From an uncultured Acidobacteriota bacterium (lineage in GTDB: Bacteria > Acidobacteriota > Polarisedimenticolia > J045), in contig CAVPCQ010000016.1 in assembly GCA_963702425.1 (NCBI GenBank), positions 52,073 through 116,072 on the forward strand: 64,000 nt of DNA. The letters are read 5' to 3'. The notes under the pieces are model-generated. The model was not told where the DNA came from and made no database searches. It saw only the letters and a list, made by a program, of their open reading frames with translations. The position numbers and the translations under genes are program-made. Of the stretch, positions 2,397-55,443 are shown one piece after another; the first letter of the stretch is position 1; each line of letters begins with the position of its first letter.

Positions 2397-3452
2397 ATGA
2401 ACGAAGGCCGCAGGATCCGGCTGACGTCGTACTCGAACTGCGCGGGTTGAGCGAGCAAGCTCGGTCCCGAGCTGCTCGCGCAGGTGCTGCGCGGCGTCAC
2501 CGAACGCGTCCCCGACCTCGCCGGCGGGGACCAGCTGATCGTCGGGCTGGCCGAGCCCGACGACGCGGCCGTCTATCGCCTCGGTGGCGGGCGGGTGCTG
2601 ATCGCGACGGTCGACTTCTTCACGCCGATCGTCGACGACCCGTTTGCCTACGGGCAGGTCGCGGCAGCGAACTCGATCTCCGACGTCTACGCGATGGGCG
2701 GCGACCCGTTCCTGGCGCTCTCGGTCGCCGCCTTCCCGGCCGACCTGCCGGCCGAGATCCTGTCCGAGATCATCGCCGGAGCGGCGATCAAGGTGCGCGA
2801 GGCGGGAGCGGTGCTGGCCGGCGGCCACTCGGTGCGCGACGCCGAGCCCAAGTTCGGGCTGACGGTGCTCGGCTTCGGGCGCGAGGAGTCGCTGATCCTC
2901 AAGCGCGGCGCGAGGCCGGGGGATCTCCTTTACCTGACCAAACTGCTTGGCACCGGCGTGCTCGCGACCGCGCTGAAGGAACAGGCCCTCTCAGCGGCGC
3001 ATGAGCGCGAGCTGGTCGCGTCGATGGCGCGGCTCTCGGGCGGCGCGTCGCGCGCGGCGGTCGCGGCGGGGGTGCGCGGCGGGACCGACGTCACCGGCTA
3101 CGCGCTCGCCGGCCACGCGCTCGAGATGGCCGAGGCCTCGGGCGCGCGGCTGGTGCTCGAGTGGGGCCGGGTCCCGCTGCTCGCCTTCGCGCGCGAGGCG
3201 GTGGAGCGGGAGTTCGTCCCGGGCGGGACCGCCACCAACGAAGCGGCCTTCGCGCCGCGCGTGGCCGGGCTCGAGCGGTTGTCCGAAACCGACCGCGCGC
3301 TGCTGTTCGACCCGCAGACCTCGGGCGGCCTGCTGCTCGCGGTGCCGCCCGACCGCGAGCCGGTCTTCCGCGCCGCACTGGCCGCCGAGGCGGCGGACGG
3401 CTGGCGGATCGGGCGGGTCGAGGCGGGCGCGGGTCTCGCGCTGGAGCCCTGA
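2397..3452 (+). CDS. selD: selenide, water dikinase (selenophosphate synthetase), Sec-containing form; in-frame UGA at 2448-2450
   Basis: The ORF track starts at GTG 2484, but the frame is open back to ATG 2397 except for one TGA. MNEGRRIRLTSYSNCAG-U-ASKLGPELLAQVL aligns with the SelD N-terminal active-site loop (E. coli ...SHGAGCGCKI...). Downstream, DFFTPIVDDPFAYGQVAAANSISDVYAMGG is the SelD core. Confidence 0.85.
2451..2479 (+). promoter_or_regulatory. bacterial SECIS-like hairpin directly 3' of the selD UGA
   Basis: GCGAGC-A-AGCUCG-GUCC-CGAGCU-GCUCGC: a 12-bp stem with one bulged A and a GUCC loop, starting 1 nt after the UGA. Confidence 0.6.
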
Positions 3453-6273: not shown

Positions 6274-6280
6274 GCCCGCG

Positions 6281-15174: not shown

Positions 15175-15238
15175 CGCGGGCGCATTGTAGCGGCGGGTCC
15201 CGGGGACGCAACACGACCCCTGTCCGGTCCCGCCGCGG

Positions 15239-17062
15239 ATGCTATCCTTCCCGCCCATGTCGAAGTCGTCCCCCGGCAAGCGCGCCGGTTCCGCCCGTGT
15301 GAAGCCCCCGAAGACCACCGCCCGCCGGACCCGTGCGGCGGGGCGCCCGGAGCACGAGCAGGCCAGCCTGTTCGAAGTCGCGGCTTCGCCGCCGGCGACG
15401 CCGGCGGCTGCGCCGTCACGCGTGCCCCGCTCGACCGCCGAGGAACCCGCCGGGCCGGTCGCGGCTGAGGCGACGGCCCGCCGGGCCGGCCGCTCCCGCG
15501 CCGGGCGCCGCCCCGTCGGCGCGCAGGAGATGGCGACCCGCCAGCGCGACATCTCGGTCTCGGAGTTCTTCACCAAGAACCGGCACCTGCTGGGCTTCGA
15601 CAACCCGCGCAAGGCCCTGCTGACGACGGTCAAGGAGGCGGTCGACAACGCGCTCGACGCCTGCGAGGAGGCCGGGATCGTCCCCGACATCGACGTCGCG
15701 ATCGAACAGCTGGCCGAGGACCGCTTCGTCGCCAAGGTGCGGGACAACGGCCCCGGCATCGTCCGCGAGCAGATCCCGAAGGTCTTCGGCAAGCTGCTCT
15801 ACGGCTCCAAGTTCCACCGCTACCGGCAGTCGCGCGGCCAGCAGGGGATCGGGATCTCCGCCGCCGGGATGTACGGCCTTCTGACGACCGGCCGCCCGGT
15901 CGTCGTGACCTCCAAGACCGGGCCGCGCAAGGCGGCGCACCACTACGAGATCGCGATCGACACCCGCGCCAACAAGCCCGAGATCCTGCACGACGCGACG
16001 ATCGAGGACGCCGCGATCCCGCAGGGGACCGAGGTCGCGATCACGCTCGAGGGCCAGTTCCAGCGCGGCCGCCGCAGCGTCGACGAGTACATGGAGCTGA
16101 CCGCGCTGGCCAACCCGCACGCCACGTTCCGCTACCGCTCGCCGGGCAGCGAGCCGGTGGTCTGGGAGCGCGTGACGAGCGAGCTGCCCCCCGAGGCGCG
16201 GGAGATCAAACCGCACCCGCACGGGGTCGAGCTGGGAACCCTGCTCAAGATCCTGCGCGACAGCGACAACCGGCACCTGGTCGAGGCCCTGGTCGCCAAC
16301 TTCTCGCGCGTTTCCCCGCAGGTCGCCGCCGAGATCTGCGCCAAGGCCAAGGTCTCACCCAAGGCCAACCCGCGCACGCTCGACACCCGCGCCGTGGAGC
16401 TGCTCTACCGCGCGATCCCGCACGTCAAGATCCTGGCCCCGCCGACCAACTGCCTGGTCCCGATCGGCGCGGAGCTGATCGAGCGCGCGCTGCGCCAGCG
16501 AATCAAGGCCGACTTCTTCGCCGCCTGCACCCGGCCGCCGGCGGTCTACCGCGGCAACCCGTTCCTGGTCGAGGTCGGCCTCGCCTACGGCGGCGGTCTG
16601 CCGGCGGAAGATCTGGTCGACGTGCTGCGTTTCGCCAACCGCGTTCCCCTGCTCTACCAGGCGGGCGCGTGCGCCGTCACGAAGGCGGTCGTCGGGACCA
16701 ACTGGCGCGGTTACGGTCTTCCGCAGTCGAGGGGCGCGCCACCGTCCGGCCCGGCGATCCTCTTCATCCATGTCGCCTCGGTCTGGGTGCCGTTCACGTC
16801 CGAGAGCAAGGAAGCGGTCGCGTCGTACCCGGAGATCGTCAAGGAGATCCGGCTGGCGCTGATGGATGTCGGCCGCCGGCTCGGCAGCTTTCTCAAGCGC
16901 CGGGCCCGCGCCGCGGCCGAGGAGAAGAAGCTCGGCTACATCACCAAGTACATCCCGCAGATCGGGATTGCGCTGCAGGACATCCTGGCGCTCGAGGACC
17001 CGCAGCGCGACGCCGCGGTGGCGCAGCTCAAAGACATCCTGGAGCGCTCGCGCACCGTCTAG
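15239..17062 (+). CDS. top6B: DNA topoisomerase VI subunit B (GHKL ATPase) with an Ala/Arg/Pro-rich N-terminal extension; start uncertain
   Basis: ISVSEFFTKNRHLLGFDNPRKALLTTVKEAVDNALDACEEAG...VRDNGPGI...FGKLLYGSKFHRYRQSRGQQGIGISAAGMYG matches the Top6B Bergerat fold, followed by transducer-domain-length sequence. Confidence 0.8.
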   Translation: MLSFPPMSKSSPGKRAGSARVKPPKTTARRTRAAGRPEHEQASLFEVAASPPATPAAAPSRVPRSTAEEPAGPVAAEATARRAGRSRAGRRPVGAQEMATRQRDISVSEFFTKNRHLLGFDNPRKALLTTVKEAVDNALDACEEAGIVPDIDVAIEQLAEDRFVAKVRDNGPGIVREQIPKVFGKLLYGSKFHRYRQSRGQQGIGISAAGMYGLLTTGRPVVVTSKTGPRKAAHHYEIAIDTRANKPEILHDATIEDAAIPQGTEVAITLEGQFQRGRRSVDEYMELTALANPHATFRYRSPGSEPVVWERVTSELPPEAREIKPHPHGVELGTLLKILRDSDNRHLVEALVANFSRVSPQVAAEICAKAKVSPKANPRTLDTRAVELLYRAIPHVKILAPPTNCLVPIGAELIERALRQRIKADFFAACTRPPAVYRGNPFLVEVGLAYGGGLPAEDLVDVLRFANRVPLLYQAGACAVTKAVVGTNWRGYGLPQSRGAPPSGPAILFIHVASVWVPFTSESKEAVASYPEIVKEIRLALMDVGRRLGSFLKRRARAAAEEKKLGYITKYIPQIGIALQDILALEDPQRDAAVAQLKDILERSRTV

Positions 17063-31783: not shown

Positions 31784-32026
31784 TCGTCGCCTCTGACGGT
31801 TGCTCCCGCGGGTTCGGTTGCCGTCCGGCGACCGAAGGCCAAGAGGAGAGGGTCGGGCCGCCCTCTCCCCAACGCGCGTGGCGCTGCCACTTCGCCATCC
31901 GGCGCGGGATCCCCGCCCGCTCCACGGCACGCCTCGCCAGCGATCGCGCTCCTCCACGTCGCGGCCTGTTCCCGTTTCGGAGCTGCCGCTTCGCACGGCG
32001 CGCGGTCGCGCCCGGAGGACCGGATC

Positions 32027-39683: not shown

Positions 39684-40058
39684 GGCCGTTGTCTCCTCCC
39701 GCGCGTGCCGACCGCGACCCGTCCCTTGGCCGAGGCCCCCCGTGGGCCGTCGTGAAAGCCGGTCAGCGGAAGAAGGGTACGCCGTGTCCGGCGCGAAAGC
39801 GTCCTGAAGTTACAGATACCTAATAGTAAGTTTTCCTTGTTCGGCCGAGACCGTTCCGGGGCGGCTATCTTGAATCCCCTGTATGGTTTGCCGCGCGGCC
39901 GAAGACCCGGCTTACCGAAAAAGGTGATTGACCTTCCCCGTCCATCAGCGTACGAAGTCGTTGGTTTGGTCTGCTCGGACGGCGCCCACCGCCCGCCGGC
40001 GTTCGGCGGGCTTCGCGCTCGTCCAGCGCAGCGAGCCTCGATTCAAGGGGAGGTCGGC

Positions 40059-43000
40059 ATGTCCGTTGGCGTGGCGTCACGCGTCGTGATTCGTCCGGCA
40101 ATTCTCGTCGTCGCTCTCGCGCTCCTCCTGGCGTTGCCTGCGGCAGCCTTCCAGCCGCGGCCGACCGCCGAGCGGTTCGACCACCTCGCCGTGGCCCACC
40201 CGGGCGCCACGATCGGGCGCGTGGGCGTCTCAACGACCGCCCTCCCCTCAGGCGACCCGCTCCGCACCGGTTGGGAGGCGTTCGTCGCCCGGCAGGACGG
40301 AGGGTGGGAGGCCTGGATCGACGAGCGCTCCGGCCTGCCGTCGCTCGCGATCGGCCGCGGCATCTCCTGGACGCCGGCCGGCGCGGCGACGACCCTCGAC
40401 GAACTCGCCGCGAAGGCGCTGCAGTTTCTCGAACAGAACCGCCTCCTCCTCGGCGACTGGGCGGGCCAGATCGAGCTCGACCGCGCGGCCTCCGGGCTGC
40501 TCGACGGGCGGATCTGGCAGATCTCGTTCCGCCAGGTGGTCAACGGCGTGCCGGTCGAGGGCTCGCGCTACGACTTCCAGGTCGCGGACGGGAACCTGGT
40601 CGCGTTCGGCGCGACCGCCTGGGGCAAGGTGCGCACCTCGCCGATCCCGCGCCTCTCGGCGGACGAGGCCCACGCCTCGCTGATGCAGAATCTCGGCACC
40701 GCGGCGCCGTCGACGCTGGAACTGCGCGGCATCCCGGAACTGCGCCTGGTGCCGGTCGACCCCGCGGGCGCCACCGCGGCCGCCTGGAATGGTCCGCGCG
40801 GCGAAGGGTACGGCCATCGCCTCGTCTGGCGCTTCACGCTCTCCGTGCCGGGCGAGTCGCCGACCTGGGTGGCCGAGATCGACGCCGCCACGGGGACGGT
40901 TGCCGCGCTCTTCGACGACACCCGCTACGAGCGGATCAAGGGCGGGGTCTACCCGATCTCCGATGACCAGCTCTGCCCGTCCGGCTGCGAGCAGCCGGAC
41001 TACCCGATGCCGTTCGCCGACTACTCCGTCGACGGCGTCGCGCAGCCCCCGACCGGCGACCACGGCCTCTACGAGTGCAGCCCCCCGGGCGCGACCGTCA
41101 CGACCCGCCTCGCCGGCCCCTACGTCCGGGTCCAGGACAACTGCGGGCCGATCTCGGAGAGCACGACCTGCGACAACCCGCTCGACCTGCGGGCCGGCCC
41201 GGGCACCGACTGCGTCGTGCCGGAGGGCTCGTCGGCCGGCAACACGCACTCCTCGCGCTCCGGCTTCTTCCACCTCAACCGTTCGATGGAGAAGGGCCGC
41301 GCCTGGCTCCCCGCCAACAACTGGCTCAAGCAGCAGCTGGTCGACAACGTCAACATCAACTCGACCTGCAACGCCTACTGGAACGGCGCGGTCAACTTCT
41401 ACAAGTCGGGCGGCGGCTGCCGGAACACCGGCGAGATCATGGGCGTCTTCGTCCACGAGTGGGGCCACGGGATCGACGCCAACGACGGCGGCGGCTACGA
41501 CAACCCGTCCGAGGCCTACGCCGACGTCGTCGCCCTGTTCGAGACCCGCGAGAGCTGCGTCGGACGCGGCTTCTACGAGTCGCAGAACTGCGACGGCTAC
41601 GGCAACGCGTGCATCAACTGCACCGGCATCCGTGACCAGGACTGGGACAAGCACGTCAACCACGCACCGTCCACCCCGTCCGGCTTCATCCAGAACAACT
41701 GCGGCGGCGGCGGCGGACCGTGCGGCAAGGAAGAGCACTGCGAAGGCTACCTGGCCGGCGAGACGGTCTGGGACCTCGCGGCGCGCGACCTGGTCACCAC
41801 CGGCGGCCTCGACCCCGATTCGGCCTGGCAGTTGGCGGAGAAGCTGTTCTACGTGTCGCGCGGAGGTTCGGGCGGCAACGCCTACAACTGCTCGCTCCCG
41901 AATGCCGACGGCTGCGCGACGACGAGCTGGTTCCAGAAGTTCCGCGTCGTCGACGACGACGACGGCAACCTCAACAACGGCACGCCGCACGCGGCCTCGA
42001 TCTTCGCGGCCTTCAACCGCCACGGCATCGCCTGCGGCACGGCCGCCGACAACTCGAACAAGAACTCCTCGACCTGCCCCGCGCTGGCCAAGCCGGTCAT
42101 CACCACGAAGGCCCTGACCAACGCGGTCGAACTGACCTGGGGCGCGGTCACGAACGCGGCGAAGTACAAGATTCTCCGCTCGGACCTGGGCTGCGACCGC
42201 GGGCAGATCATCATCGACTCCCCCGCGGCGCCGGCGACGACCTACACCGACTTCGACCTGGCGAACGACTTCACGGTCTACTACCGCGTGCAGGCGGTCG
42301 GCAGCAACGGCGCCTGCGAGAGCGCGGTCTCCAACTGCGTCGGCGCCTCGGCCGCCCCGTTCGCCGGCAACGTGCGCTTCCTGGCCGGGACCTACGGCTG
42401 CAGCAACACGATCACGCTCCGCGTGCGGGACGCCAACGTCGTCGGCTCCTCGGTGACGGTCACGGTCTGGTCGACGACCGAGCCGGTCCGCGAGACCCTC
42501 GTGCTCAACGAGACCGCGCCCGGTTCCGGCAAGTTCGAGGGGACGATCGTCACCACCTCCGCGCCCCCGCAGACCGGCGACGGCGCGCTCTCGATCCAGA
42601 ACGGCGACACGCTGACCGCGGAGTACATCGACGCCAACGACGGCTCGGGCGGTTTCAACATCGCGCGGCAGCACACCGCAACCGGCGACTGCGTCTTCCC
42701 GGTCGTCACCGGCGTGCGCGACGAGGGGGTCACAGACGTCGCTGCGACCGTCAAGTGGGACACCGACGAGCTCTCCGACACCCTGCTGCTCTGGGGCCCG
42801 ACGAAGCCCCCCTCGACCAGCACCGCGGGCGCGCCCCGCGTCGCGGCCCACGAGGTGCGGCTGAACGGGCTGACCTCCTGCACCACCTACTGGTACGAGG
42901 TTCGTTCCACCGATCCGGCCGGCAACATCGCACGGTCCGACAACGGCGGCGCCTGGTACCACTTCGAGACGCTCGGCAACTTCGGCGACGGTCTCCAGCC

Positions 43001-44771
43001 GTGTCACGCCGGCCGCGTCACATTCGACCGGCCGACGTTCTCCTGCGCCGACGGTGTCACCTTCCGCCTCGTCGACCAGGACCTGAACCGCAGCCCGGTC
43101 GCGGTCGACACCGCGGTCGTGCTCGTGACCAGCACCACGGAGCCCACGGGCGAGTGGGTGACGATCATCGAGACCGGTGCCAACACCTCACGCTTCAACG
43201 GCTCGATCGCGACTGCGGGCGGCGCGCCGGCCGCGGACGGGACGCTCCAGACCTCGAACGGCGACGTCATCAGCGTGACCTACCAGGACGCCGACGACGG
43301 CACGGGCGAGTCGCACATCTCCTACGCGACCTCGGTCGCGGACTGCGCCGGGCCGAAGATCGCCTCGGTCTCCGTCGACACGATCACGAACGCCCGGGCG
43401 ACGATCCACTTCACGACCTCCGAGCCGTCGGACACGGTCGTCGAATGGGGCACCACGCCGGCCCTGGGCCAGGTGACGAGCAATACCTCCAGGGTCACCA
43501 CCCACGACACCCTGCTCAACCAGTTCGACTCCTGCCAGACGGTCTGGTTCCGGGTCAAGACGACCGACCAGTACGGCAACCTGCGCGTCGCGGACGACGG
43601 CGGCCAGCCGTTCTTCTTCCACACCTCGCTGATCCCGGGCCTCTACTACCACGAGTCGTTCGAGAACAATCCGGTGGGCTGGACGCTCCAGGGGGAGTGG
43701 GAGATCGGCGAGCCCAGGGGGCTCGGCGCGTACGGCGGCGGCGCGGACCCGGCCGCGGCGTACAACAACCGCAGGACCCTCGGTCACGACCAGACCGGCC
43801 GCGGGGCGAACCTCGGCCGCTACGAGCCCGGCGTGAACGAGAAGGCACGGATGCCGGTGCAGACTGCGACGACGTGGACGCACACCAAGCTGATGCTCTA
43901 TCGCCACCTCGTCGCCGGCTCCGGCGACGACGCCGCGATCTGGATCTTCGCACCGGCCGGCCTGCCGCTCTTCCGCACCGACAACGCCCTGACGATCGAC
44001 CAGGGCTACCAGCTCGCCACGTGGGACCTCAGCGGGCAGATCGACGGCAAGCCCTCGGTCTTCCTCGAGTTCCAGCAGAAGGCGAACGGCGCGGACCAGT
44101 ACGCCGGCTGGACGGTGGACGAGATCATCTTCAAGGACGGCAGCAAGCCCGACTTCGGACCGTGCGGCAACTGCGGCAGCGCGCCGACCTTCGCCGGCGC
44201 GACGTCCGCGATCGACAACAACGCCTGCGGCGCGACCGGCGTCACGGTCTCCTGGGACGGCGCCCCCGCGTGGGGGACCGGTGCGAGCGGAACCTACTCC
44301 GTCTACCGCGGCACCACGCCGGGCTTCGCCGCGGACCCGGCGCACCGCGTCGCCAAGGGCGTCGTCGGGCTCTCCTACAACGACACTACCGCGCCCGCGG
44401 GGACGCTCTACTACCTCGTCCGGGCGGAGAACGACGAGACCTGCTCCAGCGGACCGCAGAACGGCGGCCTCGTCGATGACAACGCGGTCTATGTCCCGGT
44501 GACGGAAACGACCAGCCGGCCGACGCCCGCGGGAATCGGCGGCCTGGCCGTTTCCCGGCCGTCGCTGTCCCACATTCGGCTGTCGTGGTCGGCCGCCTCC
44601 GGCGCCACGGCCTACCGCGTCTTCCGCTCGCTCTCCCCCGCTCCCGGCGGCTTCGGCGTGCTGGGCGAGGCGAGCGGGCTCACCTTCGACGATCTCGGCT
44701 CGGGCGCCACGCTCGAGACCTACTTCTACCTGGTCCGCGGCCTCAACCCCTGCGGCACGGAAGGTCCTTAG
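40059..44771 (+). CDS. giant secreted zinc metalloprotease (FTP/PepSY-like propeptide, HExxH head) on the shared multi-domain stalk (protease A)
   Basis: SD AAGGGGAGG 6 nt upstream of ATG 40059, signal peptide, and GVFVHEWGHGIDAN...SEAYAD. Then FN3-like, two X-Y module pairs, a MAM/lectin-like domain and two FN3-like domains, ending TYFYLVRGLNPCGTEGP. Confidence 0.8.
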   Translation: MSVGVASRVVIRPAILVVALALLLALPAAAFQPRPTAERFDHLAVAHPGATIGRVGVSTTALPSGDPLRTGWEAFVARQDGGWEAWIDERSGLPSLAIGRGISWTPAGAATTLDELAAKALQFLEQNRLLLGDWAGQIELDRAASGLLDGRIWQISFRQVVNGVPVEGSRYDFQVADGNLVAFGATAWGKVRTSPIPRLSADEAHASLMQNLGTAAPSTLELRGIPELRLVPVDPAGATAAAWNGPRGEGYGHRLVWRFTLSVPGESPTWVAEIDAATGTVAALFDDTRYERIKGGVYPISDDQLCPSGCEQPDYPMPFADYSVDGVAQPPTGDHGLYECSPPGATVTTRLAGPYVRVQDNCGPISESTTCDNPLDLRAGPGTDCVVPEGSSAGNTHSSRSGFFHLNRSMEKGRAWLPANNWLKQQLVDNVNINSTCNAYWNGAVNFYKSGGGCRNTGEIMGVFVHEWGHGIDANDGGGYDNPSEAYADVVALFETRESCVGRGFYESQNCDGYGNACINCTGIRDQDWDKHVNHAPSTPSGFIQNNCGGGGGPCGKEEHCEGYLAGETVWDLAARDLVTTGGLDPDSAWQLAEKLFYVSRGGSGGNAYNCSLPNADGCATTSWFQKFRVVDDDDGNLNNGTPHAASIFAAFNRHGIACGTAADNSNKNSSTCPALAKPVITTKALTNAVELTWGAVTNAAKYKILRSDLGCDRGQIIIDSPAAPATTYTDFDLANDFTVYYRVQAVGSNGACESAVSNCVGASAAPFAGNVRFLAGTYGCSNTITLRVRDANVVGSSVTVTVWSTTEPVRETLVLNETAPGSGKFEGTIVTTSAPPQTGDGALSIQNGDTLTAEYIDANDGSGGFNIARQHTATGDCVFPVVTGVRDEGVTDVAATVKWDTDELSDTLLLWGPTKPPSTSTAGAPRVAAHEVRLNGLTSCTTYWYEVRSTDPAGNIARSDNGGAWYHFETLGNFGDGLQPCHAGRVTFDRPTFSCADGVTFRLVDQDLNRSPVAVDTAVVLVTSTTEPTGEWVTIIETGANTSRFNGSIATAGGAPAADGTLQTSNGDVISVTYQDADDGTGESHISYATSVADCAGPKIASVSVDTITNARATIHFTTSEPSDTVVEWGTTPALGQVTSNTSRVTTHDTLLNQFDSCQTVWFRVKTTDQYGNLRVADDGGQPFFFHTSLIPGLYYHESFENNPVGWTLQGEWEIGEPRGLGAYGGGADPAAAYNNRRTLGHDQTGRGANLGRYEPGVNEKARMPVQTATTWTHTKLMLYRHLVAGSGDDAAIWIFAPAGLPLFRTDNALTIDQGYQLATWDLSGQIDGKPSVFLEFQQKANGADQYAGWTVDEIIFKDGSKPDFGPCGNCGSAPTFAGATSAIDNNACGATGVTVSWDGAPAWGTGASGTYSVYRGTTPGFAADPAHRVAKGVVGLSYNDTTAPAGTLYYLVRAENDETCSSGPQNGGLVDDNAVYVPVTETTSRPTPAGIGGLAVSRPSLSHIRLSWSAASGATAYRVFRSLSPAPGGFGVLGEASGLTFDDLGSGATLETYFYLVRGLNPCGTEGP

Positions 44772-44798: not shown

Positions 44799-47700
44799 AT
44801 GACGCGCGCGCTCGTCGCCCTGGTGGTGGTGCTCGGCTTCACCTTCACGCTGGGCGGCGAGCCCGCGCTGCTGATCCGGCTCGATCGGCGCGGGCCGTCC
44901 GACCTTTCTGCGCTTGCCGCGGACGGTGTTCCGGTCGTCCTCGATGCCCAGACGCTGCTGCTGGTCCACGGTGACGCTGCGCGACTGGCGTGGCTGCTGG
45001 AGCGCGGCTGGAGCGCCTCCGTCGTCGACACCGGCCCCGGCCGATGGGACTACGTCCAGGCCGGGCTGCGCGACGACAGCGACATCGGTGCGCTCACGGT
45101 CGCCGGGCCGATCGTGATGTCGGCCGAGAACTGGGTCCTGGTGCGGATCCCGGCCGGCGCATCGCTCGAGCCGCTGACCCGCGCCGGGGCCTTCCTCTAC
45201 CGGCTCCCGCGGCACGGCATCGCCCCGCCGCGGGTCCCCTCCGAACCGGCCGAGACGCGCTCCGACTTCGGCTCCCCCGACCCGATCGTTCAGAAGATCG
45301 TGTCCGCCGTCAGCCCGGCACAGATCGACGACAACTGGCTCGACCTGACCACCAACCCACCGACCGGCACGCGCTTCTCATCCGCACAGGGTTGCCGCGA
45401 CTCCGCGACCTACTGCCGCGACGTCTTCGCCGGCCTCGGCCTCGGCGCCGAGCTGCAGAACTGGAGCGTCTCCCACGCGCCGAACGCGATCGGCACCCGC
45501 CAGGGGGCGATCGACCCCTCCAAGGTCTACATCGTGATCGGACACCTCGACGACCTTCCTTCGAGCGGGCCGGCCCCGGGCGCCGACGACAACGCCTCGG
45601 GCACCGTCAACGTCCTCGAGAACGCGCGCGCGATGAACTGCTGGGCCTTCCGCAACACCGTGAAGTACATCGCCTGTACCGGCGAGGAGCAGGGCCTGCT
45701 GGGCTCCGACGCCTACGCCCAGGACGCGCTGAACCGCGGCGAGGACATCCGCGGCGTGATCAACATGGACATGATCGCGTGGGCCGGGAACAACGCCCCC
45801 AATCCGGAGAATCTCGACCTCAACTACAACGGCCCGTCCCAGTGGCTGGGCGAGAAGTTCGCCGACGCGGCCACGACGTACGGCACCGGCCTCGTGGTCG
45901 ACGCCTTCTACTGCCCGTCGCTGACCGCCTCCGACCACGCCTCGTTCTGGGAGCGCGGCTGGCCGGCCGTCTGCGGGATCACCGACAACGAAGGCTACTG
46001 CGGCCACGCCGGGAATTACCCCTACTACCACCAGTCGACCGACACGATCGCCAACTGCGGCGACAAGCAGTTCTTCTACTCCGTCGTGAAGACCTCGGCC
46101 GCGACGCTGGCGGAGCTCGCCGGGGCGTTCAAGATCTCGTTCTCGAAGCCGACCTACGCCTGCGGAACGAACCTGACGGTCGTGCTCGGCGATCGCGACA
46201 AGGACACCAACCCGGCCACGCGCGAAACGGTGGCGGTCGAGGTCTGGAGCGACACCGAGACCGTGCCCGAGACGCTCGTCCTCACCGAGCGCACGGTGCA
46301 CTCGATGATCTTCGACGCCGTCCTGCCGACGACGACCGCCCCCCCGCTCACCGGGGACGGGCTGCTGTCGGTGGCCCCCGGCGACGCGCTTCACGCCCGC
46401 TACGTCGACGCGCTCGACTGCGACGGCGGGACGAACGTCCCCTACCTCGCCGACGCGCGCGTCGACTGCGTCGGCCCGGCGATCTCGGCGGTCGGCACGA
46501 CGGGGGTCAGCGACACCGCGGCGAGGATCGTCTGGACGACCGACGAGGCCTCCGACAGCGTCGCGACCTGGGGACCCGTGAAGCCGCCGGCCACGACGAC
46601 GCCCGGGAACCGCGACACGACCGCGCACGAGGTCAGCCTCTCGGGGCTGCAGTCCTGCACCGTCTACTGGTTCGACACGCGCTCAGCGGACGGCGCCGGC
46701 AACCTCGCGCTGGCCGACAACGGCGGCACGTACTTCCACTTCGAGACGCTGGGGAACTTCGGCAGCGGGCTGCAGCCCTGCCACGCGGGCCGCGTGTCGA
46801 TCGACAGGCCGACCTTCGCCTGCTCCGAGGCGGCGACCTTCCGGGTCACCGACATCGACCTCAACACCAATCCCGGGGTCGCGGAAACGGTGCTGCTCCA
46901 GGCCTCGTCGACCACGGAGCCGGCCGGCGAGTGGATCACGGCGACCGAGACGGGGCCGAACACTTCGGTCTTCGCCGCGTCGATTCCGCTGCAGGCGGGC
47001 TCGCCCACGCCCGGCGACGGCGTCGCTGGCCGTCGCAGACGGCGACACGCTGACCGCGACCTATCGCGACGCCGACGACGGCGCGGGGGCGCGCGCGATC
47101 TCGTACGCGACGGCGGCGCTGGACTGCGCCGGACCGCTCGTCTCGAACCTGCGCGCCGAGGCGATCACCGACGTCCGGGCGACGATCCGCTTCACGACCG
47201 CCGAGCCTGGCGACACCGTCGTCGAGTGGGGCACGACCCCGGCGCTCGGCCAGACGATCACGAACGCTGCGCTCGTGCTCGAGCACGCGGCGACGATCAA
47301 CCAGGGGAACAGCTGCCAGGCGCTCTACTTCCGCGTCCGGTCGAAGGACCAGTTCGGCAACGAGCGGGTCGCCTCGGAGGGGGGCGCGCCGTACCAGCTC
47401 CAGGTCGGCCGGATCCCGGGGCTCTACTGGAAGGAGAGCTTCGAGAGCGGAACGAACGGCTGGACGCTGCAGGGCGACTGGGAGATCGGTGCGCCGCAGG
47501 GCAAGGGCGGCTCCGGCGGCGGCCGGCCCGATCCCGCCGTGGCCTACAACCAGGGCAGGTCGCTCGGCCACGACCTGAGCGGCAAGGGGACCTTCCCCGG
47601 CGACTACGAGCCGGGGAGGACGGAGTTCGCCCGCAGCGCCGCGCTCAACGGCACGACCTGGCAGCGCACGAAACTGCTCTTCCAGCGCCGGCTGAACAGC

Positions 47701-48555
47701 GGCGCCGGTGACCAGGCCACCGCCTGGATCTACGCGCCGAGCGGCACCAGTTTCTACAACTCGAACAACCTGCCGGTGATCGAAAGCGAATGGTCGCTGC
47801 AGAGCATCGACGTGCGCTCGGCGGTCGACGGCAAGCCCTCGGTGCAGATCGAGTTCCGCCAGAAGTCCGACGGCGCGGGCAACTTCTCGGGCTGGAACGT
47901 CGACGAGATCATCTTCAAGGACGGCGCGCTGCCCGACTACGGCGCCTGTGGCGGCTGCGGGGCCGCGCCCTCCTTTGCCGGGGCGAGCGGCGCCGTGGAC
48001 ACCGACGCCTGCGGCGCCGGCGGCGTGACGGTGTCCTGGCAGCGGAGCGCCGCCTGGGGCTCGGGAGCCGGCGGCAGCTACGCCGTCTACCGCGGGCCGG
48101 CTCCCGGTTTCCCGGCCGACGCGGCGCACCGCGTCGCGAGCGGCGTGACCGCGCTCGCCACCACCGACGCCGGCGCGCCGGATGGCGCGCTCCACTACCT
48201 CGTCCGCGCCGAGAACGACGAAACCTGCTCGACGGGTCCCGGCAACGGCGGCGTGATGGACGACAACGCCGTCTACGTTCCGGTGACCAACACGGGGGTC
48301 CGGCCGCTGCCGGCCGAGGTCCGGACGCTCGCGGTCTCGATCGTCGGCGGTGCGCACGTCCACCTGGCCTGGAGTCCCGTGGCCGAGGCGCCGCGAACCC
48401 GCGTCTACCGCGCGCTGGCGCCGGAGCCGGGCGGGTTCTCGACGATCGGCGAGAGCACCGGGGCCGCATTCGACGATCTCGGCCAGGGAGCCGACCTCGA
48501 GACCTACTTCTACCTGGTGCGCGGCGTCAACGCCTGCGGCCAGGAAGGCCCCTAG
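44799..48555 (+). pseudogene. M28 aminopeptidase head on the shared stalk (protease B); one +1 frameshift at about 47022-47025 in the sequence as given
   Basis: M28 motifs IVIGHLDD...GADDNASGT...ACTGEEQGLLGSDAY...SDH. Frame 0 is sensible up to ...SPTPGDG, then frame 1 continues SLAVADGDTLTATYRDADDG..., collinear with protease A to the stop at 48555. Confidence 0.75.
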
Positions 48556-48566
48556 CGGCGCGCTCG

Positions 48567-48956
48567 ATGACAAAGCGCCCGAACAGGACGATCGATCGCG
48601 AGCGGCTGGTCGGCGGCTGGCGGCTCGTCACCTATGACCACATCGACATACGCGACCGCCGTCGTCCGGCGGCGGCCTGGTTCGACGGTCTCGTCGTCTT
48701 CGAGCCCGGCGGCTACCTGACCGTCGTGATCAACCGCGACGCGCCTGCCGACCGGCCGCAGGACGGGACGATCGCCTACGGCGCACGGTACGAACTGGAC
48801 GGCAACACGATCCGCAACGAGGTCCGCGTCGCGAGCGTGCGCCACTGGGTCGGCACCGTGCTCGAGCGGACCGCGACCCTCGACGGCGACCGGATCACCT
48901 TCGCGACCGCGAAGTCCGAATCCGGCCACTACGAGCTGATCTGGGAGCGGCTGTAG
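48567..48956 (+). CDS. lipocalin-like domain protein (129 aa)
   Basis: LVGGWRLVTYD...GYLTVVI...YGARYELDGNTIRNEV...LDGDRITF..., the pattern of small lipocalin-like beta-barrel proteins. The assignment is tentative. Confidence 0.55.
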   Translation: MTKRPNRTIDRERLVGGWRLVTYDHIDIRDRRRPAAAWFDGLVVFEPGGYLTVVINRDAPADRPQDGTIAYGARYELDGNTIRNEVRVASVRHWVGTVLERTATLDGDRITFATAKSESGHYELIWERL

Positions 48957-49113
48957 GGGCCGGCCTCTGTGCCGGCCCGAAACGGGCCACGCGTTGGCCG
49001 GGCCGGCACAGAGGCCGGCCCCTACGGCGCCACGCGGAACGCGGTCGAGGCGAGCCGGGCCGGCACGGAGGCCGGCCCCTACGGCGCCACGCGGAACGCG
49101 GTCGAGGCGAGCA
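48953..49113. repeat. REP cluster: one GTAG-form copy (48953-48978), then two opposite-orientation copies (49000-49025, 49057-49082) within a 57-nt tandem duplication
   Basis: GTAGGGGCCGGCCTCTGTGCCGGCCC ... GGGCCGGCACAGAGGCCGGCCCCTAC+31 nt ... GGGCCGGCACGGAGGCCGGCCCCTAC+31 nt (31-mers identical except for the last base). Confidence 0.9.
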
Positions 49114-51211
49114 GCCCCGGCGGGCGCGCGGCGGCGGGCGCTCCGGCCGTGCCGATCGACCCGGCCACCAACTCCGGATCCGCTGCCGTGTCGACGACGG
49201 CGAAGGTGTAGTGCCCCTCCGTCAGCGTGAACTCCGGGATCGTCAATCGCGCCTGCGTGCAGAAGGTCCCCGGGCCGTCCGGCTCGGCCAGCGCCAGCGC
49301 CGACTCGGGCATCGGCTGGACCGAGCGGGCCCCGTCGGGCGCGGTCGAGATCAGCAGGTGACGGACCTTCCGGCGCGCCTCGGCGCGATCCGGCCCGCAC
49401 AGGACGTAGCTCAGGGACACGCGGTCGCCCCCGTCGGCCGGTCGCCCCTCGGTCACGACGCGGAACGACCCGCGCCCGCTCTCGCGCTTCGCCGCGGTCA
49501 TGCCGGGCCGCCACACCAGATCGAGCCCCGACGCGGCCTCGACCCGCGCCGCCATCGCCGTCCACTCGTCGCGGCCCCCCTTGCGGAACACGACCGTACT
49601 CCGACCCGCGCCGGCGGCGTCGGCCTCGAGATCGGTGATCACGCCGCGCGCGACGTGGATGCCGTCCTTGCGGTAGGCGCAGGGCACCTCGATCGTGAAC
49701 CCGGCACGGGCCCTGGGCGAAGGCAGCTTCGGCAGCCGGAGCGCGACCTCGCCGAGCGTCTCGCCGCCGACCTGGCAGACCGGGTCGAGCCCCGCCCCGT
49801 TGTCGCGCTGCACCACGGCATCGACGAGCAGGCGCGCGCCGAAGGTCCCGTCGGAAGCGGGGATCCAGGTCAGCTCGGACAGCGGGACGCGGAAGCGGGC
49901 GAGCAGGACCTCCTTCCCCTGGATCGTCGACGGGTAGTCGAGCATCACGGACACCGGGGGACGAACGAAGTCGTCGGGCGCCAGGAGGGCGGCGACGCGC
50001 CGGTGGGTCAGGCGCTCGGCCCGGGCCTCGATCGCGACCTGCGAGGGGGCCATCACGCGCAGCCCCCAGAGGTCCTTGAAGCGCTCGGTGTCGAGCTTGA
50101 CCGCGAGAGAGTGGCGTCGCGTCGGACCGCCCGGCGGGACCGGCAGGCTGAAGAGGTAGTAGCACGAGAGCTGCTCGGCGGCGCCCGCGAGCGCCGCGCC
50201 GAGATCGGTGACGTTCCGGACGGCCCGGCCGCCGGAGTCGTTCGCCAGCGACGAGAGGATCTCCGAGTTTCCGCCCCCGCCGCTCAGCCCCTCGACGTCG
50301 ACGGTCCAGATCGCGAACCCCTGCTGCGCGAGGTCGAGCACCGGGCGCAGGGTGCGCTCGAGCTTCTCGGATTCGGCCCCGAGGAAGCGGAAGCGCGGCG
50401 AGGAGAAGAGCACCGCCGCCTTGCGGCCCGGGAGGTGGGTGTGAGCCTGCAGCATCCCCTCCAGCGCGGCCAGCGTCGCCTGCGGGGAGTAGAGCCCGGC
50501 GCCGGACGTCGGCGCCGCGCCGGAGGTGTTGAACTCGAAGCTCTCCGCCCGGAGAGCGGTCGCGGCGGGCATTCAGCCCGAGCAGCCGCCCTTGCCCGAG
50601 CCGGCCGCCGCGACGACCGAAAGATCGTCGCTCGCCAGCACGCCCGCGATCGCGGCCTGGCCGCCGTCCCCGCGGAAGGCGACCGCGCGGATCGCCGCCG
50701 CCGCCTCGCGCAGCCGCGCCGGATCGCGCGTGAAGCCGGCCGTCAGCTCGCGGACCTGGCGGGTCAGGGCGTAGACCTTGTAGACCTCCGGCCGCGCCGC
50801 GGCGCCCGCCGCGACGCCGTCGATCGCGTCCGCGACCTTCGCGCGGCCGCGCGCGTCGACGTAGTTGAAATCGACGATCACGAGGATCGGCCGCGGCATC
50901 CCGTCCCCGACCGCGTCGCAGATCGGGTCGAAGCGCAGCGCCGCGCGCTCTTCCGTCGTCAGCGGCTGGCCGTCGAGCCGGAAGTCGAACTGCTCGGCGG
51001 TCAGGCCGGGGACGGACCGGTAGCTGCCGGCCTTGGGATCGACGACCGAGACGTCGACCTGCACGAGGCGAGCCTCGGCGCGCTCGACGAGATCGGTCGC
51101 CGCGTCCGGAGACGGGGCCGCCGGCGCCTCGGCGGGGCCGGCCCACGCGGCGGGGCACCCCGCCAGGATCGACGCGACGACGAGACGCGAGAAGAACGGT
51201 GAAGGCCGCAC
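49079..51211 (-). CDS. VWA-like lipoprotein (acidobacterial VWFA-related domain architecture) with an in-frame UGA at 50573-50575; candidate selenoprotein
   Basis: ORFs 50573..51340 and 49079..50572 are contiguous and in the same frame. GTG 51211 gives the signal plus lipobox SRLVVASILAGC. The domain elements are split by the UGA (see finding). Confidence 0.6.
50540..50557 (-). promoter_or_regulatory. hairpin 15 nt downstream of the in-frame UGA (candidate SECIS)
   Basis: On the minus-strand RNA: GCUCUCC-GGGC-GGAGAGC, a perfect 7-bp stem with a G-rich tetraloop. Confidence 0.35.
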
Positions 51212-51397
51212 GGTCTCACCCCCCGGCGCAGTGCCGCTACACCGTTGGCAGGTTACGCGCCTCCGCGGCCTCCTGTCGAGTGGCATCGGGCTCGGGGACG
51301 CGGCCCCCCGCGGACCGGCTGCGAGCGCGTCCGCCCGCATCCGGGGTTCCCCCGGCGGTGCTTTCCCGGTACATTCCGGCAGCTCGGGGAGGTTCTC

Positions 51398-54300
51398 ATG
51401 AGGCCGATGTCCCGCCGTGCGGCGTGCGCCGCGTCCGTCCTGTTCGCCGTCCTGCTCGCGATCGTATCGGTTCCGCTCGCGTCGGCCGCCGGTTCAGCCG
51501 CGGCCCCGACCGGAGCCAAGCTGATGGGCGACCTGCCCGCGGTGCTCGACGCCGCGGGGCCGGGGGAGCGGATCCCGGTCTACTTCGTGCTCGCCGACCA
51601 GCTCGAGGGGGACGCGCTGCGCGCGCGGGTCGCCGCCCTCACCGCCGGGGCCGCGCCGCCGGCCGGCGCCGCGGGCAAGGCCGCGCGCCGCCAGGCCACC
51701 GTGAGCGCGCTGCGCGAGCACGCGACGCAGGCGCAGGCCGGGCTGCTGGCCGCGCTCCGCGCGCTCGAAGCGCAGGGCGCCGCCGCGCGCGTCCGCCCGC
51801 TCTGGATCGGCAACGTCGTCGGCGCCGACCTGGCGCCGGACGCGGTCCGCGCGCTCGCGGCGCGGCCGGAGGTCGTGCGCGTCAACTGGAATCCCAAGCG
51901 CGACGTCTTCCTCGGCGCGCGCGCGAGTGCCGGACCGAGCGCCGCGCCGGCCGGCTGGCGCGCCCGCTACGGCCTGTCGCCGCTGGCGCCGGCCGGGACC
52001 GACGGCCCGGGCATCGACGCCCTCGAGTGCGGCGTCGTCAAGATGCGCGCACCCGAGGTCTGGAACGAGCTGGGCAACACCGGGGCCGGGGCCGTGATCG
52101 CGGTGATCGACACCGGCGTCTGCTGGACCCACCCCGACATCGCGAACCAGATCTGGGTCAACCCGGGCGAGGACCTCAATCACAACGGCGTCGTGATGGA
52201 CGCTGCCGACATGAACGGCGTCGACAACGACGGCAACGGCTTCATCGACGACCTGATCGGCTGGAACTTCGACCTCAACACCAACCAGCCGACCGACGAG
52301 AACTCGCACGGCTCGCACTGCGCGGGGACGGTGGCGGGGGACGGGACGGGCGGGAGCCAGTCCGGGATGGCGCCGGACGCGAAGATCATGGCGGTGCGGG
52401 TCGGGGTCAACTTCTCGGACGAGGTCGACGTCTGGAACGCGATGCAGTACGCGGCGGCCAACGGCGCCGACGCGATCTCGATGAGCCTGGGCTGGCCGCA
52501 CGGCCAGAACCCGGACCGGCCGACCTGGCGCACGAACTGCGAGAACACGATCAACGCCGGGACGGCGATGGTGATCGCGGCCGGCAACGAAGGCCAGGGC
52601 GCGGAGCCGGACAACGTCCGGACGCCGGGCGACGTGCCGCGGGTGATCACGGTCGGGGCGACCGACTGCAGCGACGTCGCGGCGGGGTTCTCGTCGCGCG
52701 GGCCGGTGACCTGGCAGGGGATCGCGCCGTGGAACGACTGGCCCTGGCCCCCGGGGCTGGTCAAGCCGGACATCTCGGCGCCGGGCGTGGACACACTGAG
52801 CCACGACGTCTGCTCGGGTTACTCGTACAAGTCGGGAACGTCGATGGCGACGCCGCACGTCGCCGGCGCGGTCGCGCTGATCGTGGCGGCCAACCCCGGG
52901 CTCGAGCACGACGACATCAAGGCGCTCTTGGAAGAGACCTCCGTCGACCTCGGCGAGCCGGGCAAGGACAACACCTACGGCACCGGGCGCGTCGACGTCT
53001 ACGAGGCGGTGCTGCTCTCCGGCTCGCGCGACGGGCGGATTGCGGTCAAGGAGCAAGCGGTGCGGTGCGGCGGGTCGCTCAACGTCACCGTCTCGGACAC
53101 CGATCTCAAGAACTTCGGGACGATCCAGGTCACGGCCGTCTCGACGACGGAGACCGCACCCGAGAGCATCACGCTGACCGAAACCAATCCCGGCAGCGGC
53201 GCCTTCAAGGGCGTGGTCCCGATCGGCGGCGGCGCGCCGCAGGCCGACGGCGTGGTCCAGGCCGCCGACGGCGACACCGTGACCGTGACCTACGTCGACG
53301 CCGACAACGGCGCCGGCGGCCTCAACGTCCCCAAGTCCGACAGCGCCCCGGTCGACTGCAGCACGCCGCGGATCTCGGGCGTCAGCGCCGAGCCGACGAT
53401 GACCTACGGCGCGATCATCCGCTGGACCACCGACGAGGCGTCCGACAGCCTGGTCGACTACGGCAAGCAGATCCCGCCCGACCGCAGCACCCTCAACGGC
53501 GCCCCGACGACGCAGCACCAGGTGACGCTGACCGGGCTCGAGCAGTGCACGATCTACCGCTACCGGGTCAGCTCGACCGACCGGGTCGGCAACAAGGCGA
53601 CCGACGACAACGGCGGCGCCTACTACTACTTCGAGGTGATGGGCGACTTCGGCCAGGGGCCGCAGTCGTGCCACGCCGGCAAGACGACGCTCGACCGGGC
53701 GGTCTACTCCTGCGCCGACACGGCCACGCTCGAGGTCTCGGACATGGACCTCAACCTCGATCCCGGCGCGATCGACGGCGGCGATGCTGCTGGTCACGAG
53801 CACCACCGAGCCGGCGGGCGAATGGATCGCGGTGACGGAGACCGGCGCCAACAGCTCGCGCTTCCGCGGAACCGTCGCGACTGCCGGCGGGGCGCCCGCG
53901 CCCGACGGCCGGCTCCAGCTCGCCGAAGGCGACACCCTGACGGTCAGCTACCACGACGCCGACGACGGCGTCGGCAACCCCCGCTGGACGCTATGCGACC
54001 GCGATCGCCGACTGCGCCGGCCCCCGCATCTCGGACCTTCGGATCGACACCATCACCGACGCGCGCGCGACGGTCCGCTTCACGACGGACGAGCCGGCGA
54101 GCGCGGTCGTCGAGTGGGGCACGACGCCGGCGCTGGGTCAGACCACGTCCCGCGCGTCGCTCCAGACGGCGCACGACGATGCTGCTCAACGACTTCAGCT
54201 CGTGCCAGCGCGCCTACGTCCGCGTGCGCGTCACCGACGAGCACGGCTACGAGACCGTGGCCGACAACCTCGGAACGCCGCACGCCTTCAGCCTCGGCCT

Positions 54301-55443
54301 GATCCCGGGCCTCTACTGGAAGGAGAGCTTCGAGGGCTCGACCGCGGGCTGGACGCTGGGCGGCGAGTGGCAGGTCGGCGCGCCGCAGGGCGAAGGGCGG
54401 ATCGGGCGGCAGTCTCCCCGACCCGACCAGGGCGTACAACAACGGCAAGGTGCTGGGACACGACCTGACAGGCCTCGGCGGCAACCCGGGGGCCTACGAG
54501 CCGAGCCGCACCGAGAAGGCGCGCTCCCCGAACCAGAATGCGACGACCTGGCACAACACCAGGCTGCTGCTCTACCGCCAGCTCAACGCCGGCGACGGCG
54601 ACGAGGCCTCGCTCTGGCTGTACGCGGGCCCGGGCCTCCCGCTGTTCCGCAGCACCGGCGCGGTGATCGAGGGCGACTGGTCGCTCCAGACCTTCGACAT
54701 CGCGTCGCAGGTGGACGGGAAGCCGGTCGTCTCGCTCGAGTTCAGCCAGAGGTCGGACGCGTCGGGCCAGTTCTCCGGCTGGAACGTCGACGAGATCGTC
54801 TTCAAGGACGGCACCAAGCCCGACTACGGACCCTGCGGCGGATGCAGCGGGGCGCCCACGTTCAGCGGGGCGGTCTCGGCGCTGGACAACAACGCCTGCG
54901 GCGCCGGTGGGGTGACGGTCAGCTGGACTGCGGCCCCGGCCTGGGGTACCGGCAGTGCCGGGACCTACGCCGTCTACCGCGACACGACACCCGTCTTCAC
55001 GCCGTCCGCCGCCAACCGCGTCGCCGCCGGCCTGGGCGGCCTCTCGTTCAACGACGCCGCGGCCCCGAACGGCGCGCTCTACTACCTCGTGCGCGCGGAG
55101 AACGACGAGACCTGCTCCTCCGGCCCGAACAACGGGGGGCTCACGGACGCCAACGCGCACACCGTGCCGGTGACGAACACGGCGACCCGCCCGCTGCCGG
55201 GCGCGATCGGATCGCTCGCGGTCTCGGTCGTCGGGGGCAGCCACCTGCGGCTCTCCTGGAGCGCGCCAGCCGACGCCAGCGGCTACCGCATCTACCGCTC
55301 GACCTCGCCGCTCCCTGCGTCGTTCGCAGGCGGTCGGCGACACGGCGGGGCTGACCTGGGACGACACCGGCCGCGCGGCCGATGCGTCGACCTACTTCTA
55401 CCTGGTCCGCGGGACCAACCCCTGCGGGCAGGAGGGGCCCTGA
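51398..55443 (+). pseudogene. subtilisin-like S8 serine protease head on the shared stalk (protease C); five +1 frameshifts in the stalk in the sequence as given
   Basis: SD GGGGAGG, signal peptide, and the S8 triad contexts VIAVIDTGV, HGSHCAGTVAG, SGTSMATPHVAGAVAL. The stalk is collinear with A and B only if the frame is advanced by one at about 53777, 53978-53982, 54178, 54395 and 55329. Length minus 5 nt is divisible by 3. Ends TYFYLVRGTNPCGQEGP. Confidence 0.75.

Follow-up and report, generated by a model that had tools for sequence, protein, structure and literature searches.

An in-frame UGA followed by a covarying hairpin points to a putative new selenoprotein family of exported VWA-like proteins in Acidobacteriota

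The sequence considered here, referred to below as the window, is a stretch of 64,000 nucleotides (nt) of contig CAVPCQ010000016.1 in assembly GCA_963702425.1 of an uncultured Acidobacteriota bacterium (Polarisedimenticolia; J045). On its minus strand two adjacent open reading frames (ORFs), 50573..51340 and 49079..50572, lie in the same frame and are separated solely by a TGA at positions 50573-50575. An earlier note, made from the letters of this DNA, had drawn attention to this arrangement and to a perfect 7-bp hairpin 15 nt after the TGA, at 50557-50540, and had proposed that the TGA encodes selenocysteine (Sec, U) in a VWA-like lipoprotein. The coordinates, the reading frame and the hairpin were all verified. 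Read through from the GTG at 51211, the two ORFs give a single gene of 710 codons in which the TGA is residue 213, within the peptide GKGGCSG*MPAAT (asterisk, TGA). The proposal itself has gained considerably in strength, as the UGA is conserved, the hairpin covaries, a Sec-containing SelD is kept in the lineage and the predicted fold of the protein spans the site. On this evidence it is very probable that the UGA encodes Sec with the aid of a bacterial SECIS element (Sec insertion sequence), and that the gene represents a putative new family of exported VWA-like proteins; Sec is the most likely reading because no fewer than 14 further assemblies have the same UGA followed by the covarying hairpin. 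The window has a GC content of 72%, and TGA is the stop codon of about half of its ORFs with high third-position GC content, the criterion for a real gene in this count; TGA is therefore an ordinary stop in the window, and the code is not reassigned. Between close pairs of homologues the ratio of non-synonymous to synonymous substitution rates (dN/dS) is 0.17-0.31 in both halves of the gene, between distant pairs the halves are similar, and neither half contains a further stop or a frameshift. Judged from these ratios, both halves are under purifying selection.

A homologue search of 5.8 billion proteins returned 37 relatives. The continuous homologues are 700-712 amino acids long, are collinear with both halves, and start at the position equivalent to the GTG at 51211. 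Three of the 37 relatives are C-terminal halves only; their contigs are split alike, and the DNA of all three has the same in-frame TGA, the preceding TGC TCG GGN and the same hairpin. Further loci were collected by protein-pattern scans of metagenome and genome collections, N-terminal fragment searches and contig look-ups, and TGA stands at the same column in loci L001/L002, L003, L004, L102, L016, L017, L010, L018, L101, L100, L183 and L184/L185, among which L016, L017 and L018 come from the metagenome-assembled genomes (MAGs) CAVPDB01, JALOKP01 and JAGOJY01, respectively. The UGA form thereby occurs outside the window in no fewer than 14 assemblies (11 distinct sequences with the window included), drawn from JGI, from Logan assemblies of public sequencing runs, and from NCBI and ENA MAGs, and its proteins reach down to about 45-50% amino-acid identity with the window protein. 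When 1.84 billion cluster representatives were searched with a profile, 88 clusters were returned at E <= 1e-30. At least nine clusters (at 50% identity), a count that pools clusters of this profile search with fragments from the earlier N-terminal fragment search, consist of N-terminal fragments of about 190-230 amino acids that end in ...GCSG, ...FCSG, ...CFSG or ...CGSSG before a stop. Taken together, the many loci and fragment clusters indicate that the UGA form is widespread and old. All UGA forms encode a Cys 3-5 residues upstream of this codon, giving the motif CSGU, CFSGU or CGSSGU.

A single hairpin of this kind is not significant, since 2.6% of all TGA triplets in the window are followed by a perfect 7-bp hairpin 8-20 nt downstream; the folding z-scores of single sequences over the 61-nt region are likewise unremarkable (-0.7 to -1.4). 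The significance of the hairpin derives from its conservation and covariation in other assemblies, and as such it is comparison between sequences that backs it, while single-sequence thermodynamics give no support. In all UGA forms the hairpin starts 15 nt after the TGA. It reads GCUCUCC-GGGC-GGAGAGC in the window clade, with the loop AGGC in L003, AGCCUCC-AGUU-GGAGGCU in L010, GCUCUC-CGUGCC-GAGAGC in L018 and L101, GCCUCC-GGGC-GGGGGU in L100, CUGCUC-CGUGCU-GAGCAG in L183 and GGC(U)CUC-CGUGCU-GAGGCC in L184. Pairing is kept in 97% of the cells of alignment A5, which holds the 11 distinct sequences. The three outer pairs take three or four pair types each (GC/AU/CG, CG/GC/GU/UA and UA/CG/GC/UG), three of the six pairs covary, and the covariation score of 0.448 (0.147 for shuffles) is reached by 0 of 500 shuffled alignments. 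When the 3' partners are slid as a control, pairing drops to 35-55%, and an earlier alignment of nine sequences gave the same picture of pairing and covariation. In L010, L100 and L183 the peptide over the stem is altered (SLQLEA, SLRAGV and LLLRAEQ) and pairing is kept; in UGA-free homologues the peptide ALRAE is kept with other codons, and pairing amounts to 3/7, 4/7, 6/7 and 6/7. Constraints on peptide and on RNA thus dissociate, because pairing survives a change of peptide and ALRAE survives a weakening of the pairing. Among five UGA forms, none of the five codons for conserved residues within the hairpin varies synonymously, compared with 56% gene-wide (about p = 0.016). These comparative data argue that the hairpin is under selection at the RNA level. 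All of the apical loops (GGGC, AGGC, AGUU, CGUGCC and CGUGCU) contain a G, and a small G-containing apical loop is a feature cited for bacterial SECIS elements, with which the spacing from the UGA also agrees (PMC1088965).

The protein that would result from read-through is best described as secreted, with a VWA-like domain that, as the earlier note had supposed, spans the site. No Pfam model matched the joined protein, the VWA models included. Its best and only match to a family model is to NCBIfam TIGR03436 (acidobact_VWFA), which covers residues 44-355 across the TGA (E 2e-18) with a score of 67 bits, below the curated cutoff of 81.25 bits. Structural comparison relied on an AlphaFold model of P0001, a UGA-free homologue 82% identical to the window protein (predicted local distance difference test score, pLDDT, 80; predicted template modelling score, pTM, 0.81). 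In this model the site (residue 215) ends a low-confidence loop, 179-216, ahead of a helix at 218-231. Foldseek against the PDB matched the model to the VWA domains of TFIIH p44, ITIH1, integrin I domains, alpha2delta-1, Rpn10 and a BatA-like protein (E 2.5e-5 to 6e-4, probability about 1.0), with template modelling scores that are low because the query has several domains; the C-terminal domains matched Ig-like and transglutaminase beta-barrel structures. Searched by sequence with the family profile, the PDB yielded no match. The canonical metal-binding (MIDAS) motif of VWA domains is DxSxS at the end of strand beta-1; at this position the family has an invariant D-F/L-N-Y, followed by (V/L)-D. 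The description of the product as a lipoprotein, which had been based on the lipobox ILAGC, fared less well. Close homologues have LAGN, LLGI or LVGF in place of ILAGC, without the Cys, and retain the hydrophobic core and the (A/V)WAGP of the signal peptide; lipidation is doubtful because the lipobox Cys is not conserved while the AWA|GP site is.

These properties of the product bear on one alternative, which is that the gene is split: the TGA would end a secreted protein of about 212 residues, and translation would restart at the adjacent ATG (TGAATG) to make a separate C-terminal protein of 497 residues. Two hypothetical ORFs are indeed what is annotated in every assembly examined, and an ATG follows the TGA directly in the window and in most UGA forms. 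However, the corresponding codon is CTG in L010, GTG in L183 and CTC, which is not a start codon, in L184/L185. In L184 the TGA is followed by 528 open, homologous in-frame codons, and the next called start lies 48 codons downstream, within this stretch. The frame relation of the two ORFs is strictly 0 in every locus, and Met or Leu is found at the +1 position in UGA-free forms too. Simple coupling also leaves no role for a hairpin that covaries and keeps a fixed distance from the stop. Moreover, the signal peptide is confined to the N-terminal half, the half downstream of the UGA has none, and the fold spans the site; separately made halves of one VWA-like fold would therefore end up in different compartments. 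Stop-restart coupling, which the earlier note had itself set against its proposal, fails on the CTG, CTC or GTG that follows the UGA in some lineages, and we regard a split gene as very improbable.

The capacity of the organism to decode UGA as Sec is indicated by the window itself, which also contains selD, with an in-frame UGA and SECIS hairpin of its own. In a tblastn search, E. coli SelD matched this gene at 42% identity (E 1e-67), and its active-site Cys fell opposite the stop. The motif at the UGA is AG-U-ASK (AG*ASK), and was found by tblastn; a regular expression for a U-G-C-K SelD motif had given no match. The hairpin has a 12-bp stem with a bulged A and a 4-nt apical loop that contains a G, and UGA and hairpin are kept in five related MAGs, including all three UGA-form MAGs. 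The Sec-containing SelD reported in the earlier note is thus real, and it is because selD has its own in-frame UGA and SECIS element that we take the organism to decode UGA as Sec. Like the VWA-like gene, selD would be truncated by gene callers.

A further alternative is that the UGA is recoded without Sec, either by near-cognate read-through (for example with Trp) stimulated by the hairpin, or that the hairpin modulates only termination or mRNA stability. We infer that SelB binds the hairpin of the VWA-like gene, and it is here that such an alternative finds room. The G-U dinucleotide matters in the fdhF SECIS element of E. coli, and the loop GGGC of the window has none; the absence of Cys at the Sec column, described below, also speaks for this alternative. 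Against this, the lineage has a SelD with its own UGA, the CGUGCY loops of two lineages do have the G-U dinucleotide, the spacing and the small G-containing loop fit bacterial SECIS elements as noted above, and the Cys 3-5 residues upstream tracks the UGA, like the CxxU of known selenoproteins (PMC13188914). On balance recoding without Sec has only a slight chance of being correct. That the TGA stems from an error in sequencing or assembly, or that the gene has recently become a pseudogene, is scarcely credible even given the probable 1-nt indels in the neighbouring genes (five frame changes in an S8 peptidase gene and one in an M28 peptidase gene), as it is effectively refuted by the TGA in at least 14 other assemblies of several sources and as both halves of the gene are intact, with dN/dS below 1.

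Several observations nevertheless weigh against decoding as Sec. At the TGA column, Pro is found in P0001-P0006, the closest of the continuous homologues (73-82% identical): GISGPLPAATALRAE. No homologue has Cys at the Sec column, and Pro, Ala or an unalignable loop is found there instead. As such, the expectation of the earlier note that homologues carry Cys or UGA at this column held for UGA, which is present in many of them, and failed for Cys, the UGA-free forms having Pro or Ala. The MAG CAWDCL01, in which the gene is of the Pro form, still has the Sec-containing SelD (95.7% identity), and Sec is therefore dispensable there. The loop that bears the site is modelled with low confidence. 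Within the hairpin, the inner 3 bp of the stem are invariant, which follows in part from the codon usage of L-R-A-E. Rfam gave no SECIS match, either for the window at gathering thresholds or for the site at permissive E-values; this result is uninformative because the same scan also misses the SECIS element of selD. Finally, selA, selB and tRNA-Sec were not found within the 64-kb window or the fetched lineage loci. The search for tRNA-Sec works as a method, since ARAGORN detected tRNA-Sec beside selD in unrelated Firmicutes loci.

The UGA-free relatives are informative as to how the site has evolved. Among 37 full-length UGA-free representatives the upstream Cys is absent in 36, and the sole one with a Cys in the loop segment is P0010, which reads GCSGPMSAAA at the site; P0012 has Ala at the TGA column. 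A close comparison is with CAWDCL01 (L015/L103, contig_62847), which is syntenic with positions 39058-59695 of the window, with flanks about 93% identical (90-97%). Its VWA-like gene is 83-91% identical to that of the window, and a stretch of 54 nt around the former UGA contains a cluster of about 15 substitutions and a 6-nt insertion. Such a pattern suggests that constraint relaxed locally once Sec had been lost, or that the allele was replaced. We considered whether Pro forms are confined to genomes without SelD, and this was ruled out by the Sec-containing SelD of CAWDCL01; because of it, loss of the Sec trait is no explanation for the Pro forms.

In a neighbour-joining tree of the C-terminal halves the UGA forms are scattered. 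L010 is basal; L018 pairs with the UGA-free tandem paralogue P0012, the window clade with the Pro clade, and L003 with P0010, as sister groups in each case. The simplest reading of this tree would be an ancestral UGA with at least three losses. UGA-free and UGA paralogues lie in tandem on the same strand in two distant lineages, at 5300-7435 with 9902-11992 in L018 and at about 816-2771 with about 2850-4881 in L010. The gene for P0010 (L006/L007) keeps GCSG and the Met, has CCG (Pro) for TGA, and retains the hairpin with one mismatch; it is possibly an intermediate form, and looks as if a selenoprotein gene had been converted not long ago and had kept a relic of its SECIS element. The Cys is thus present or absent along with the Sec, an indication that the two function as a pair, and we infer from the sequences that they act together.

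Nearly all known selenoproteins have Cys homologues (PMC13188914), and standard SECIS-independent pipelines filter on Cys homologues, of which at least two are needed (PMC1088965, PMC1976440, PMC13188914). The present family would be invisible to such surveys because this filter cannot be met. No VWA or TIGR03436 selenoprotein family appears in a 2026 review table of 119 prokaryotic families (PMC13188914), in BSepDB or in deep-Sep, and full-text literature searches for one returned nothing relevant; the statement in the earlier note that no VWA-family selenoprotein had been described agrees with the catalogues searched. Selenoproteins with a CxxU motif and a SECIS element within the ORF, such as GrdA and the SelW-like and AhpD-like proteins (PMC13188914, Table 1), resemble the VWA-like gene in having an in-frame UGA with a downstream stem-loop in the coding region, a small G-containing loop, a Cys three residues upstream, and SelD in the organism. 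Unlike these, the VWA-like family has a secreted scaffold rather than a thioredoxin-like or other oxidoreductase fold, a motif that lies in a loop modelled with low confidence, and a Cys-Sec spacing that varies from x2 to x4. It also differs in having no homologues with Cys for Sec, its UGA-free relatives having Pro or Ala and usually having lost the upstream Cys. A recently recognised CxxU selenoprotein family, identified computationally, is alike in having a cell-envelope scaffold that is not an oxidoreductase; its fold is unrelated, and Cys homologues are reported for it, whereas none was found for the VWA-like family. With TIGR03436 (acidobact_VWFA) the family shares its origin in Acidobacteriota, the VWA-like fold found by Foldseek, and collinear homologues of 700-750 amino acids. 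It differs as a subfamily that scores below the cutoff, with the UGA and hairpin inside the domain and D-F/L-N-Y for DxSxS. The UGA and SECIS element of selD in the window (2448-2479) belong to the same organism and are presumably served by the same SelB, and in both genes the UGA is followed by a stem-loop. In selD, however, no spacer separates the UGA from the hairpin, which brings the loop about 10 nt nearer to the UGA than in the VWA-like gene, and the stem is longer (12 bp with the bulged A). It is probable, then, that the recoding mechanism is of a known kind, and that what is new is the family, its lack of Cys homologues and its extracytoplasmic scaffold, which is not that of an oxidoreductase.

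If the UGA is decoded as Sec, the two annotated ORFs would be one gene, and the UGA at 50573-50575 would be read as Sec during translation. The hairpin at 50557-50540 would act as a bacterial SECIS element that recruits SelB-GTP-Sec-tRNA(Sec) to the ribosome; Sec would be inserted, and translation would then go on for another 497 codons. The product of about 710 residues would be exported by means of its N-terminal signal peptide. By the structural model, Sec would lie at the end of a Gly-rich loop within the VWA-like domain, with a helix following it and a Cys 3-5 residues ahead of it. Since the UGA-free relatives have lost both residues together, we propose that Cys and Sec make up a pair in an extracytoplasmic loop, either a selenenylsulfide redox pair or one that binds a metal or ligand.

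Confirmation would add to the selenoproteins a family whose scaffold is not known to contain Sec, from the poorly studied Acidobacteriota, and would correct a recurrent annotation error by which one gene is called as two hypothetical ORFs. It would also run clearly counter to the working rule of Cys-containing homologues for selenoproteins, and the window and MAG CAWDCL01, with Sec/Cys and Pro forms in near-identical context, would offer a ready comparison for the contribution of Sec. A bolder idea starts from the Cys-x(2-4)-Sec pair, which some lineages appear to have retained across deep divergence and others to have deleted (Pro or Ala, with the Cys gone), even among relatives in which Sec is still used. 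With no Cys alternative for Sec, and with the pair in a flexible loop of an exported, adhesion-type VWA-like scaffold, Sec might have a selenium-specific, non-classical role outside the cytoplasm; we hold this tentatively, and think it rather less likely to be right than wrong. Were it true, the role might be for example that of a selenenylsulfide switch or latch, or the capture of soft metals or chalcogens, and selenoproteome surveys based on Cys homology would systematically miss such families. The coordinates of the VWA-like gene, its elements and selD are collected in Table 1.

Table 1. Positions in the window of the proposed recoded gene, its elements and selD
Feature	Coordinates	Strand	Remarks
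Complete recoded gene (proposed)	49079..51211	-	710 codons from a GTG start, one of them an in-frame UGA; TAG stop at 49079-49081
Product of the recoded gene (predicted)	49079..51211	-	Secreted protein, VWA-like domain then beta-sandwich domains
N-terminal signal peptide, residues 1-24	51140..51211	-	Lipobox-like ILAGC and signal-peptidase-I-like site AWA|GP
Cys codon TGC	50582..50584	-	Three residues upstream of the UGA; motif C-S-G-U
In-frame UGA, proposed Sec codon	50573..50575	-	TGA kept at the same column in homologues
Proposed bacterial SECIS hairpin	50540..50557	-	7-bp stem GCUCUCC/GGAGAGC, apical loop GGGC, begins 15 nt after the UGA
selD, selenophosphate synthetase	2397..3452	+	In-frame UGA 2448-2450, SECIS hairpin 2451-2479

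Genes for secreted peptidases (M28 and S8) and for a sulfatase-TPR protein neighbour the VWA-like gene, and homologous loci likewise have peptidase genes nearby. Five +1 frame changes occur in the S8 peptidase gene (51245-55354), near 53778, 53990, 54175, 54390 and 55328, and there is one frame change in the M28 peptidase gene near 47024. These sit exactly where the close relative L015 has one base fewer; they are probably indel errors in the assembly of the window and less likely gene decay. The ORF 51245..55354 also contains Arg-rich stretches that are apparently out of frame. A C-terminal module of about 2.1 kb, with about 70% nucleotide identity, is common to the ORF at 39756-44771 and the M28 and S8 peptidase genes (42600-44771, 46230-48559 and 53130-55443), and recurs in L001 and L015-L017. 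At the 3' end of the VWA-like gene a 57-bp tandem duplication (48997-49112, two copies, 98% identical) spans its last 30 nt and the stop codon. Between this gene and a convergent lipocalin-like gene lies a 30-nt inverted repeat (48950-48979 / 48999-49028), which is probably a bidirectional terminator, and identity to L015 falls to 75% over this region of duplication and inverted repeat. Further away, Rfam identified an nhaA-I RNA, a riboswitch-type cis-regulatory element, at 31810-31866 on the plus strand (44 bits, E 1.9e-5, above the gathering threshold). The plus-strand ORF 15191-17062 joins a topoisomerase VI B-subunit transducer domain to a GHKL ATPase domain, a combination that is, to our knowledge, uncommon in bacteria.

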